Shown here in pieces: positions 526 through 31,700 of a DNA stretch of 64,000 bases; the first letter of the stretch is position 1, and each line of letters opens with the position of its first letter. A model generated the notes under the pieces. That model was not told the origin of the DNA and ran no database searches. It saw only the letters and a program-made list of their open reading frames with translations. Source of the DNA: Tubulanus polymorphus. Its lineage: Eukaryota; Animalia; Nemertea. The translations under genes and the position numbers were made by a program. The stretch lies in assembly GCF_964204645.1 (NCBI RefSeq), contig NC_134026.1, forward strand, positions 4,363,950 to 4,427,949, read 5' to 3'.

Positions 526-2766
526 TAAACTACGTTTTGCGCTATTATTTAGGTTTCTCATATAGGTTTTTCTCAAGACTTTTTGATTGATTTTGTCAAA
601 TGATCCAATAACAGGTTTAAATGAAACTTGGACGTATCGATATATCTGATCGGTGTATAGAGTCAGGATGAATTCTAGTATTTTTTGTATGATCTTCCTT
701 TCTTATCCATTCATCCGTTTTTCTTATCGAATGAAAATGAAAATGAAATTTCCACTTGATTGTCGCTGTGCCTGTATATCGGGTGTAGATGATGAAAAAT
801 AGCGTGGTGTCGTAAAGTTCTTTGATAGAAGTCGTAAATAAAGGTATGCGAGGAGACTAGAGCCGTAGATAATGGTATCATCAATAGTGACTTTATCAGA
901 TAATCGCCCATCAGAACTAATATGAATAATCATTACATTAATTGTCGTGATTAATTGTAAGAACAGTCTCTCTTACCCTCGTGTAGCACTACGTGTGCTT
1001 GAGATAAATGTTTGGTAAGCAGGATAAATGATCGAAACAATAAATTATCTATACCAGCGAAATACGACTAACTAATTACTATAATCGAACTCCATGGACC
1101 AGGAAAATGATATCCAAAATCATGGTATATTCTTCTGTTTCAAATGAGACGGAAAGGTTAGAACAAACAATAGGCCTATTGAATGACCGGTTTTTAGACG
1201 TAACTTGAAAGTTAGGGCCATCGAACGAAGTTGGGGCCATACATACATCTGCCAAAAATATTTTCACGAGCGGTATCCAGCCACCCAGCGATTTCTCTCT
1301 ACTTTAGGATCCTATATTGAAATGCTTATTTATTTTGGTACACAATGAAATAAAAGGTTTGATACGTCTTCCAAAATAGAAATGTTTTGCAACCGCAGAG
1401 ATAATTATAGAAAAATACATACCAATAAGAAAAACTCAAGAACATCGTCCATTATCATCAATCCGTCGTTATAACCCCTGAATTTGACCAGTCGTTGCTT
1501 CGGCATAAGATTTCTAAAAGCTGGGCAGATTTAACGCGATAGCTGTGACAAAACCCGTTTTAACGATTGAGAACATTTGACTTGAGCTGCGCTCGCAGCG
1601 AATCCTTTCAATAATCTGCTGAAACATTAAACTACTGCCGCGGAGTTCTCAGTTTTTATCCTTAAGAATGACGCATGAATAAAATAGCGCACAACGAATC
1701 ACGCAAGGCCAATGCAGTCTCCCATACCGAGTACCATTGTCATTCAAGTTAGAATTTAATTAAAAAATAATTCGATTTCTTATCTTGGGATTGAAATTTT
1801 GGTTCGTCGGTGATAAAACGGACGAGTGTACCCATATAAGTGGGCTTAGATTTATAACACTGTTTCTGGTTTGAGGTAAGGCTCGAAGATGCCAGGCATC
1901 CATTATCCACTACTATACCTGATCGTGCGATATTATCATAGAAAATGACATTTTAATGTTTTTTTCTGTTGAATTATCATCGCGATTGGCAACGCTAGCT
2001 GCGCTGTATTCTAACGTAATCGTGGGTGAAATTACAATGCAACTGCGAGTCATCAAAAAATCATCAGTCAAAATACATTTTAATTCTGTGCACCATGAGT
2101 GATGAGTACGCACTGCGGCAATTCATACGAATTTAAATGGGAACTAAATCAGGCAATAACTACAGGTTCAAAGAAACTGTTCACTTTATTGATATGATTC
2201 ATTAAAATGTGATAAGCTAGAATTAGATACAATAGAAATAGAAATACTAGTGAAGGCGATAGTAATATGGTTGAGACAAGTCACAATGAGTATGATCGTT
2301 TTGCGGTTATATACTATTAGACCTTGAAGCCCACCAAACTGTTTATTAGGTGTGCTTTTTTATTTGAACCAGAAATGGAATTTCCGATTGAAATATTGTA
2401 GAATGCCAGTAGTGCATGTCGATGAGCTCGTGTGGATCACGAGTGGATTCTAGAGTAGAAATATTGTATTTGATTGGAATGCATTGAAGAAAAATTAAAA
2501 ACCACATTTAACGCATTAAAATGGTATTGGTTCGATGAACTCAGATTTGTATTTTTCTGTTGCTCCCCATCCACCATTATACCGCTGAGCTGGAACACTG
2601 ACCTGTGTGTATATATATATATATATATATATATATATATATGCCCAGTCCAAATTCTGTAAAATTTCTTCCCAGCGATTTCTGATAAATAGAAACGAGT
2701 AGCAAGGACGTAGCATTGTTGGCTTTAAGCCTAACTCAAAATTTAGCGGTCAGCTGTCGACCTGGG

Positions 2767-2790
2767 CGCTCTTATTGGACAATAAGAGCG
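2767..2790. repeat. Perfect 11-bp inverted repeat (cgctcttattg-ga-caataagagcg), also at 11957-11980 and 21312-21335
   Basis: Read directly from the sequence; lies about 0.8 kb upstream of each ATG. Confidence 0.8.
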
Positions 2791-3274
2791 TTCCTTACCC
2801 TTTTGTTTTACCCTTAACGTTGAATTGCTACATTACGACATAACACGTGCTAAATATCTAACTTTGAGATATGAATATATTTGTGATTTTTCAGTAAAAT
2901 ACGCTTTTCATAATCTGTAAAACATTTCTACAAAACATATATTTGTTTATCCGATAAACAACTTATCTTCGATGGGATTTTTTCTTAGTGTTGCGACTCG
3001 ATTGATACCGACACAACTGGGATTTCGGCAACTGGTGAGAACTGGTGGTTTACGGTTTGCCACCAGTTGCCTTTATATCCGCTCAAAATAATATAACGAA
3101 TACATACATCATATTCGAATGATTATCAATCGGGAAGTTATGCAAATATCCGGCAACGATTTTTATATGAATTTGTTTTCATTTGTTTTCTCAATAAATA
3201 TTAAATTGTGTGCATACTTACAATACAAAGCGTCAGATTTTAGGGGATGGTTTCAGCTCAAACTTCCTCCTACG

Positions 3275-28691: not shown

Positions 28692-28727
28692 CTACGTAGT
28701 AGCAGATATCAGGAACCCTACCGAGGT
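28320..28727 (+). repeat. 78-bp coding minisatellite (Tyr-repeat tail), copy 3
   Basis: ORF 28269-28691. Confidence 0.97.
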
Positions 28728-31700
28728 TACCGCCACTGCTGATTTTAAATAAATTCCTACTCTTCATCCGAGTAGGGTTTTATACAAATAATCTGTATAA
28801 AATTCTGCTTGGATGAAGAGTAGGTCGATGATTTGTTTTAAGATTCAATTTTAAAAGAATTTTATCATTTTTTAGATGATGATAATTGTAAATAAGTATT
28901 GACTTGTTAGACTGCTATTTGTATGTTTAATGTATTGAGTCCAAAACGAGAATTCCAGGATCCACTTTCGCTTTCCCAGGTTGATTTTTGAAAATAAACT
29001 TCAAACGTCTAATTCAATTCTCAGAATAGACCCACTATGGAACTGGATACAGATTTTTATCATGGCAACTACGTGTTTAGAAAGATAGAATTTTTCATTC
29101 ATATAATGTATAAACAAAAGGACATATAACAGAATTTAAATATAACAATTAAACAGTCGTTTGTGTTGATGATGTTTGGTATACCTCGCAGTCTAACTCG
29201 GTGATGGCCAACTCGAGCTTTCTTGTAAAAAGAACTCAAAAACTTAACATCTTCGGCTGAAACTATCGTGGGACTTCTTTCGTAATCGCTGCGAATTACT
29301 TTCGGGGAAATCCAAAATCTGAATCAAACTGCACGTCTTGGTCCCCGCCACTCCACTCCCCAAGTACGATGACTCGCTAGATTCCGGATACATCCTCGCC
29401 TGCCAGGGCTCGGTTGCCTCCTCTGTAGTTCACTACACCAGTCAGTTCTCTAAATAAGAGTTCGTCCATATTTTAGAATATAGGCATCAAGACTACTCAG
29501 TGTAAGTAATTACTGGGTTCGACCCGGGACACCTACCCTGTACATCCTTTATTCAGCCCCAGGAGCACTCGGAATCAGTGTCAGAAATTACTGGGTTCGA
29601 ATATCGGACTCCCAACATTAGACACACATTCTTCTTTCTTCCGCACCTGGGTGTTAATAGAATATTCCGGTAGATGGCTCTCATGCTTATTCTCTACTTA
29701 ACGTTATGTTTGACAATTGTAAATACTTCTTGATGTCCCTCAATCTCTCGTTTTGGTGATGAGTGTAAATAAATTTCATTTCAATTTCAATTTCATTGTA
29801 CCGGTATAAACAATCCATGGCTTACCCTAACAAACACTTTGTACGTCCATCAGCATCAGGGTCACTCTGAGTTCGAGTCAGTTACTTACAGCTACTACTG
29901 TACTTTCGAGAAAGCCATAACTCGAGGAAGAAGATCTCGCCGTGGACTTACACCCGCTACGACGAGTTGGCGACATCGATACCCTTTACATAAATATTAG
30001 AATGTTATTTTATGAAGAAGATTCCGACGATTCTTCACATGTGTATATCGCAAATATTCCAAAATTGGTGGGATCGACAATGGTCAAAGCGAAGTATTTA
30101 TTACTGGTCTCAATGTTGTATCCGGAAATTTTCTGCGGAGTTCAAATATCAATCAATATTGACATTTCCATTAAATTTTTCAGAAGGCTATTTCGTTTCA
30201 ATCGGAATAATCATTCTACTTAATTAAAACGGCACGAACGAGACGATACACGACTGATAGACAAACGCCGATGGCGGAACGCGTAGATCAACAGGGCCGT
30301 TCAATAGCAGATCAATTCGATTTATAGAATTTCTTAAACATCCGATATTGTAGTATCGATAATATACATAAACGATAAGGGGAAAGATCACTAAAATTGA
30401 ATGGCAAGAACAGGGAGAAATGTTCCGTAAAAATGAATATCTCGGACATATTTATATACACACAGCGTGTAATTGAACGTAATGAAAAGCACGTAGTAAC
30501 CCTTCATGTCAATATCGTCTGCATTTATGAAGAGTGGAGACTTTTATCATTCGTAAATTGGATGCTAGGTGCACGCGGGATTCAATTTACCGAGGGGTGA
30601 TCGATACTTTTTTTCCGGAGACTCGACTTTCTTCTGCCTCCGACAGGGATCGGCATTTACATTTAGATTGGGGCTTTCTAACGCATCGAAACTGACACCA
30701 ACTTCCCGTCTATGTCAGCAAAATTATCCCCCCCGTACACGGCGAAGTCGGTGACAGATGCCGGCATTAGAAAGGTTTTACGCTCCGTTTATTCCGTGCC
30801 GGTGGAATTAGAAAACGCCGGTCAACACAAGAAATCGTACGTCGCAAGGAATACCAACGGAGAGCAACCAGGAAACGATTCCATGTATTTTCCGGCAGCG
30901 GTCTACGTGTTCTGACTGCTACTAATAACAAGTGGGCGACGCAAATGAGCTCGAAGTGGAAAGTTGGCCTAATCGGCACATAATGAAATTAGCCACTGAA
31001 TTCGTTTTTGTCCGTCTTACGTATACGGTTAATGGGGTGACTGGAATATCGGTAATCTCTAGGTTACCTCGTCGATTATCCCAAACCTCCGGTCGATAAC
31101 CCAGAGCGGTTTTTGCAGTAAGAAAAGAATTTACTCGGATTTCTAAGCCAACTGCTCGTTGCGTATATACATCTCCTGTCTGCTCGTTTTGCATGTAACA
31201 CACATAACGAGCATTGAACAATTTATTTTGAATCAATCACTCCGCATCCTAAAAGCTAACGTTGCATAATATTCGACTCTGTTAATCTTCTGAACGTCTT
31301 AAATGATTCCAATGATTTCTAGACCCACTAAAACTAACTTAAGATGTAAATAGACGAGCGATTGTTATCAAATCTGTCTACGAGGTGTTAAACAGGGGGG
31401 AAACTAAACCCGCGTATACAACGAACGGATATGCCGAATAGACAGTCGCACCGGTGACACTTTTACAGCGAATTAAGACCTAGGTGTTTAACGTTCAGGA
31501 TTATTTGCAAACTAGATCTGATTTATTCGTAGATTATTCATGATCCTCGCCTGACTTTCGAGCCTCTGCGAACATAACGTATACCCGCAGCGGTAGCGGC
31601 CGGCCGGCGCGAAGATGCATCGGATATTCACAAACTATTAAAACGGCTGCCAATTTCTTCGCCCCGGGTTGGTGATATATGATAAATAGTGGCGCGTTGA

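Follow-up and report, generated by a model that had tools for sequence, protein, structure and literature searches.

The window analyzed here is a 64,000-nucleotide stretch of the genome of the nemertean Tubulanus polymorphus (NC_134026.1, positions 4,363,950 to 4,427,949). It carries a tandem array of three genes, A, B, and C, for predicted single-pass receptors with an F-type lectin domain near the N terminus. Self-comparison resolved three direct repeats on the plus strand at 1190..30444 (unit A, 1190-10426; unit B, 10427-19770; unit C, 19771-30444); all array features below lie on this strand. Gene A (coding span, 3548..8674; RefSeq LOC141898815) has 18 exons and encodes 927 aa, gene B (12764..18015; LOC141898814 isoform X3) has 18 exons and encodes 924 aa, and gene C (22114..28691; XP_074641029) has 21 exons and encodes 1220 aa. 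We found no internal stops in the three translations, and in the exon models all introns were bounded AG..GT. Compared with RefSeq proteins of T. polymorphus, the A protein lies wholly within P0004, B equals P0001 from residue 22, and C equals P0005; the exon for the second EGF domain was placed under the requirement of a RefSeq match, so agreement there is not independent. With open frames equal to RefSeq proteins, the array consists of three intact tandem paralogues, as the original prediction held. We left out an optional micro-exon of 30 nt in the tail (A 7959-7988), since it is absent from RefSeq and C has no donor for it. RefSeq fuses B and C as one locus; its hybrid isoform joining B to C (P0002) may be an artifact of mapping.

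Outside a patch in the lectin domain, the units differ at 1.3-2.0% of DNA sites, a figure computed without an AT microsatellite and, where C is compared, without the rearranged stalk (A 5335-6120). Their introns are 97-100% identical, and all coding indels are in frame. The end of A and start of B match B/C at 99.0% identity over 4.8 kb.

Each protein is predicted to contain, in order, a signal peptide, an EGF domain, the F-type lectin domain, a second EGF domain, a stalk of FN3 domains, a PTPRU-like membrane-proximal FN3 domain, a transmembrane (TM) segment, and a Tyr-repeat tail. Besides the membrane-proximal domain, the stalk has three FN3 domains in A and B and six in C, which bears out the two stalk lengths proposed earlier. 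Pfam scans matched fn3 at E values of 1e-28 to 1e-58 and Fn3_PTPRU at 2e-4, below the curated cutoff, and found no Ig family domain in the array proteins. The first EGF-like exon of A lies at 3908..4036 and the second at 4808..4942 (B, 14018-14152; C, 23362-23496). Two exons encode the lectin domain, at 4156..4710 in A (4156-4398 and 4483-4710), 13372-13920 in B, and 22722-23264 in C, and the membrane-proximal exons of A are at 6698..7314. Genes A and B lack most of the long stalk (C exons at 24205..25832) by way of an in-frame FN3 fusion. The donor used by C at 23870 is lost in A (5329-5334) and B (14539-14544), and its replacement lies 6 nt on with the frame kept. Interspersed high-copy repeats, visible as depth spikes and loose ends, occur at 29497-29601 and at 25986-26024; the latter adjoins the C-side edge of the stalk deletion.

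The copies diverge sharply in a ~125-bp patch near the 5' end of the first lectin exon (A 4167..4296, with counterparts near 13384-13493 in B and 22734-22837 in C). Here they differ at 34/127, 50/121, and 46/121 sites (27-41%), against 0-1/119 sites in the preceding intron and 1-3/84 in the following one (0-4%). The best 130-column window held 34, 52, and 46 substitutions; in 2000 shuffles of each pair, the count never exceeded 12, 15, and 13, respectively. At the protein level, the N-terminal patch of ~45 residues is identical at 26/46, 21/44, and 19/44 positions, and the remaining lectin domain is 88-93% identical. The earlier description of three very different lectin tips is therefore right for this patch and wrong for the rest of the domain. 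Judging from the anchors D38, H52, and R79 of the eel lectin AAA (PMC5712786) and from the alignment, the patch probably covers loops CDR1-3 (complementarity-determining regions 1 to 3) around the sugar pocket.

A model of the lectin domain of A (predicted local distance difference test [pLDDT], 86) best matched 3cqo (Z, 20.1; root mean square deviation [rmsd], 1.7; 135 residues aligned) and 1k12 (Z, 19.5; rmsd, 1.9; 136 aligned). All of the top 10 structure matches were F-type or fucose modules (Z, 18-20; rmsd, 1.7-2.2; 131-136 aligned), although the model was built on an 18-row F-lectin alignment, which makes this evidence partly circular. In a single-sequence phmmer search, the domain matched FBP32 at an E value of 9.7e-7. 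The fucose motif His-X26-Arg-X-Asp is kept in A, B, and the phosphatase twin introduced below; its His-to-Arg spacing is printed as X24, yet His52 and Arg79 of AAA lie 26 apart (PMC5712786). W-K-x-R is conserved in 6/6 family proteins after an insertion of 7-15 residues and aligns with the FBP32 Arg in the sequence alignment. Of the calcium motif h2DGx, DG is kept in A, B, and C (x = K/I/V), and the twin has EG.

A search with the lectin domain returned three clusters, all from T. polymorphus; among 148 lectin matches, none of the 10 with names checked was from Biomphalaria. One of the proteins found, P0003, is encoded on the same 31.9-Mb contig as the array and joins the same ectodomain to two protein tyrosine phosphatase (PTP) domains, the first of which has intact catalytic motifs (HCSAGAGRTG and WPD). 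We refer to it as the twin. Its identity to the array proteins is 91-100% in both EGF domains and the first FN3 domain, 95% in the long stalk of C (293/308 residues over the exons noted above), 93-97% in the last FN3 domain, 88% in the membrane-proximal region, 66% in the TM segment, and ~22% in the cytoplasm. This gradient is the pattern expected of paired receptors (PMC4042635, PMC5112662), which are recognized by near-identical ectodomains on unlike tails, and the array and twin have both. Residue sharing changes from domain to domain. The tip of A is identical to the twin's at 39/47 positions versus 26/46 to B and 21/44 to C, and the second FN3 domain of C is identical to the twin's at 71/88 versus 44/65 to A/B. 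Thus, the tip of A and the second FN3 domain of C group with the twin, and at the membrane A, B, and C group together. This mosaic would fit gene conversion or unequal crossing-over.

An older paralogue on another chromosome, P0138 (11.5-Mb contig), is colinear with P0003 at 31% identity, and a PTP domain was present in 1/146 non-self lectin matches, namely, in P0138. Because P0138 has a long stalk and PTP, we regard the long stalk and phosphatase as ancestral and the short stalk and Tyr tail as derived. Set against the two phosphatase-bearing paralogues, the array lineage has lost PTP. Pfam scans found no cytoplasmic PTP domain in P0001 or P0002, and the whole window is free of phosphatase exons, with tblastn of P0003 ending at residue 973/1646, in line with the catalytically empty tail first proposed. 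With the PTP region of the twin as the query, the search recovered the twin and, after it, LAR/RPTP-alpha-type proteins of a generic kind; none of the 120 matches listed was a clear orthologue. The 11.5-Mb contig also encodes P0130, a 415-aa relative that ends after one FN3 domain with no TM segment seen and is possibly a secreted form.

The tail has a different source. It is encoded by the last two exons (38 nt plus the terminal exon; A 8028..8674, B 17369-18015, and C 28045-28691), is 201 aa long with 12-13 Tyr, and is built on 78-bp repeats, which in A begin at 8294. When the membrane-proximal region and tail served as the query, there were 8 matches: two clusters from the array and six single-pass receptors with CUB domains, encoded on a 16.7-Mb chromosome. 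The nonrepeat part of the tail is identical to that of 6/6 CUB receptors at 36-39 of 60-61 residues (~60-65%; z, 14.8-19.3, above all 300 shuffles) and does not align with P0003 or P0138 (z, -0.3 and 0.5). The TM exon, in contrast, is identical to that of the twin at 19/30 residues (z, 11.3) and scores a z of 1-4 against the CUB genes; it and the first cytoplasmic exon (A 7548..7802) derive from the phosphatase gene. The switch from phosphatase to tail falls at a phase-1 intron (A 7803-8027). We concluded from these comparisons that genes A, B, and C are chimeras of the ectodomain and TM segment of the phosphatase twin with a tail of the CUB-receptor type. Exon shuffling is the simplest account, and the phosphatase outgroup suggests the direction in which the tail was donated. 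This origin had been overlooked by the original prediction, which had also taken the ectodomain for an undescribed combination; that does not hold, since P0003 and P0138 carry the same EGF-F-lectin-FN3 set and Biomphalaria clusters of EGF and galactose-binding receptor PTPs (RPTPs) have been published.

The CUB receptors (P0286-P0291, 16.7-Mb contig) number at least six; their CUB arrays vary in length, and their tails have 15-39 Tyr in acidic repeats. They are labeled cubilin-like or uncharacterized, and the family looks like a variable receptor cluster of its own. YxN sites recruit Grb2-type SH2 adaptors, and we counted 5 such sites in the array tails, together with 10 Tyr in acidic context and one site resembling a hemITAM (a relative of the immunoreceptor tyrosine-based activation motif [ITAM]). 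The twin has one site with the pattern of the corresponding inhibitory motif (ITIM). The hemITAM definition was taken from PMC12582321. We set aside a Pfam DUF2880 match on the tail as a repeat artifact, disregarded a beta-sheet tail in a single-sequence fold of P0001 (pLDDT, 38.8), and treated atlas matches to the TM adaptors SCIMP, LIME1, and A36R, all <0.9, as leads only.

Four other read sets (X1, X2, X5, and X6) contained further tips. X1, which may not be independent of the window, has the exact B tip and another 29 letters from B; X2 has a similar tip 32 letters from B, and a B-like allele occurs in X2 and X5. The B-like contig of X5 has 9 differences, and 8/8 of those listed change an amino acid taken singly, which is too few for a test. 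In X6, at least 5 reads carry another CDR4 ending. Relative to 12 unique bins, X6 depth was 2.0x in three tail/3' bins, 2.4x in three shared ectodomain bins, and 1.3x in one long-stalk bin, with bins containing microsatellites, high-copy repeats, or poor cover omitted. X6 is multicopy, perhaps with fewer copies than the assembly; read depth, the check proposed earlier for misassembled haplotypes, thus supports several copies and perhaps not all 3. In X1, the exact B tip had a contig depth of 26.7 versus 30.9-31.5 in unique flank, contig depth being a rough guide. X5, a run not recorded as RNA, has contigs that skip predicted introns at GT..AG (5 + 1 joints), which indicates spliced RNA.

A near-perfect hairpin with a 31-bp stem lies 65 nt past the stop codon of each array gene (A, 8739..8807; B, 18080-18148; C, 28756-28824; plus strand; z, -12.5 versus shuffles). 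Every Rfam match to it was far below the gathering score, and it may be a remnant of a miniature inverted-repeat transposable element or an RNA element. Elsewhere in the window, a long open frame on the minus strand (39525-41093) encodes an amine G protein-coupled receptor whose best solved match is the 5-HT7 receptor, and upstream of it are local duplications at 42016-43540 (556 bp, 99.6%) and 42574-45205 (415 bp, 95.9%).

The nearest published receptors are those of Biomphalaria, in which clusters of EGF and galactose-binding RPTPs, PTP-less members included, are associated with schistosome resistance (PMC12297450, PMC13712769). The SudRes1/LG5R MEGF clusters are likewise lophotrochozoan, encode single-pass receptors with EGF plus galactose-binding/fucolectin ectodomains, include members with tandem PTP (1C) and without it (1B), and show extracellular diversity and copy variation. 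They differ in that the snail descriptions have no FN3 stalk (the word "fibronectin" occurs 0 times in the main text of PMC12297450) and that, in the main-text description, PTP-less members have small cytosolic domains with no signatures, whereas the array has a 201-aa Tyr-repeat tail. Vertebrate Siglec-5/14 and CEACAM1/3, whose ligand-binding regions conversion keeps alike, resemble the array and twin in that those regions are nearly identical, the cytoplasmic ends are unlike, and copy number varies (PMC4042635, PMC5112662). Unlike these pairs, the array is not of the Ig superfamily, its putative inhibitory member is a receptor phosphatase, and its putative activating tail lacks a canonical ITAM. 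Known F-type lectins (AAA, 1k12; MsaFBP32, 3cqo; oyster bindin) share the fold, the DG calcium core, the His..Arg-X-Asp motif, and, as in the eel isoforms, CDR1/CDR2 variability (PMC5712786), but the array domain has a long CDR4 insertion and a displaced third Arg, lacks Cys50-Cys146, and is embedded in a receptor. LAR/R2B-type RPTPs share the FN3 stalk, the PTPRU-like membrane-proximal domain, and, in the twin, tandem PTP domains; their Ig or MAM domains are absent here, and PTP is absent in the array. Botryllus FcoR and Hydractinia Alr are likewise clustered variable receptors with Tyr-motif tails, and the hemITAM-like site of the array resembles FcoR motifs (PMC12582321), but they have Ig folds and roles in allorecognition that genetics has shown, and the array has no Ig family domain. 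LAT and SLP-76 homologues are reported missing in Botryllus (PMC12582321). We found no literature on the array locus or on the CUB/Tyr-repeat family, most subscription journals lying outside our coverage, and the FN3 stalk, the sharply bounded patch, and the CUB-shared tail were unmatched in the literature found (for the snail papers, the main text). A paper on nemertean immunity (PMC9835746) nowhere mentions fucolectin, F-type, phosphatase, CUB, or Tubulanus. We concluded that the kind of receptor is already known from Biomphalaria and that the FN3 stalk, the bounded patch, and the CUB-shared tail appear to be new in the literature found.

With slightly more belief than doubt, we favor the reading that A, B, and C are activating glycan receptors paired with the inhibitory phosphatase twin, probably in immune recognition. 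According to this model, the tip would bind fucose- or galactose-type glycans, and each patch would shift fine specificity. Clustering by ligand would lead Src/Syk-type kinases to phosphorylate the acidic Tyr repeats, and the five YxN sites would then recruit Grb2-type SH2 adaptors, which would make the tail a built-in LAT-like scaffold. The twin would bind overlapping ligands and would dephosphorylate or oppose the array receptors through its phosphatase and ITIM-pattern site. Gene conversion and unequal crossing-over would homogenize the units while old divergent tips persist. More tentatively, and leaning against it as a whole, we propose that a LAT-like Tyr-repeat tail has been grafted on unrelated variable ectodomains (CUB and F-lectin/FN3), by which a receptor phosphatase would have become its own activating partner, one whose glycan-reading tip is polymorphic.

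Several findings weigh against the paired activating receptor. In the pocket, C of the assembly carries Asn in place of the fucose-motif His (C-type reads of X6, 5/5 covering, and an X1 contig have His there), the third basic residue of the fucose triad sits beyond the inserted loop rather than four positions past RXD, and the Cys50-Cys146 disulfide pair is absent. Because the third Arg is displaced by the insertion and one disulfide is missing, fucose binding by the tip is plausible but not assured. In the patch, the proportion of synonymous differences (pS, 0.19-0.38) about equals that of replacement differences (pN, 0.26-0.38; both uncorrected), with no replacement excess. Since synonymous divergence is raised as much as replacement, the patch looks old and sheltered from homogenization, and we rejected positive selection on it as unsupported. 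Canonical ITAMs and ITIMs number 0 in the tails of A, B, C, and 6 CUB receptors, and none of the 8 matches in the word-limited tail search came from outside T. polymorphus. Two loose ends of X5 carry sequence of the twin type, and the ectodomain splices in X5 may therefore come from the phosphatase gene; 0/15 listed joints in X5 (12 more are unlisted) enter tail exons. Support from X5 for the tail genes amounts to contig coverage of one bin (28430-29068), and the evidence that the tail-swapped genes are expressed is thus only indirect. The spliced transcripts proposed earlier as a check are indicated by GT..AG joints, none of which, among those listed, enters the tail. The Tyr-repeat tail originally predicted is borne out by its 12-13 Tyr, but it has no canonical ITAM or ITIM, and the module is common to CUB receptors. 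As for the predicted glycan-recognition family, the F-type fold, the loop-focused variation, the extra tips, and the snail precedents speak for it, but replacement changes show no excess, the ectodomain was already known, and the tail lacks ITAM/ITIM; its role may lie in immunity, allorecognition, or fertilization.

We consider it unlikely that the copies are instead decoys or dominant-negative modulators, which would bind the twin's ligand or dimerize with the twin and whose Tyr repeats would serve as a substrate or sink, the copies themselves sending no activating signal. The near-identical ectodomains, the closeness of A's tip to the twin's, and the absent canonical ITAM would suit this role, and RPTP dimerization is mentioned in PMC12297450. 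However, the tips of B and C are strongly unlike the twin's, and the tail also occurs on CUB receptors without a listed phosphatase domain, which suggests an autonomous signaling module. We give similarly little credence to the same mechanism with an endogenous ligand, in which case the receptors would serve to recognize gametes, to tell self from nonself tissue, or to mediate adhesion in development and not to sense pathogens. Oyster bindin diversifies sites in its F-lectin pocket (PMC5712786), and Botryllus FcoR receptors have similar acidic Tyr motifs (PMC12582321), but bindin is an acrosomal protein and not a signaling receptor (PMC5712786), and the nearest published architecture is tied to parasite resistance (PMC12297450, PMC13712769).

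Still less probable are young, largely neutral duplicates of a gene shuffled together by chance, with the patch a conversion relic from old donor alleles. The near-identical introns, the equality of pN and pS, an X6 depth suggesting ~2 rather than 3 tail genes, and tail transcripts not seen directly would agree with this account. Against it stand the in-frame coding indels and three open frames, and the divergent island both ends at the exon edge (0-1/119 intron differences) and coincides with the pocket loops. Moreover, divergence from the twin in the TM segment (66% identity) and membrane-proximal region (88% identity) implies that the tail-swapped lineage is older than the copies. Haplotypes placed in tandem by the assembly are very improbable: the 4.8-kb identity and the RefSeq fusion of B and C would fit them, but the X6 and X1 depths speak against them, and we rejected a pure haplotype artifact because the two haplotypes of a single locus cannot account for three distinct tail genes.

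It is an open question by what means variable glycan recognition in invertebrates leads to activating or inhibitory signals, and no mechanism is available for the F-lectin RPTP clusters of snails that are tied to schistosome resistance. The locus is a compact test case, with four near-identical ectodomains and several natural tips differing in ~45 residues. It also offers two tail types with a traceable exon-shuffling event and a Tyr-repeat module that has no name yet and occurs on at least nine receptors encoded in the T. polymorphus genome. If the paired-receptor reading is true, the array and its twin would be an invertebrate paired-receptor switch and part of a modular innate receptor system in a nemertean.

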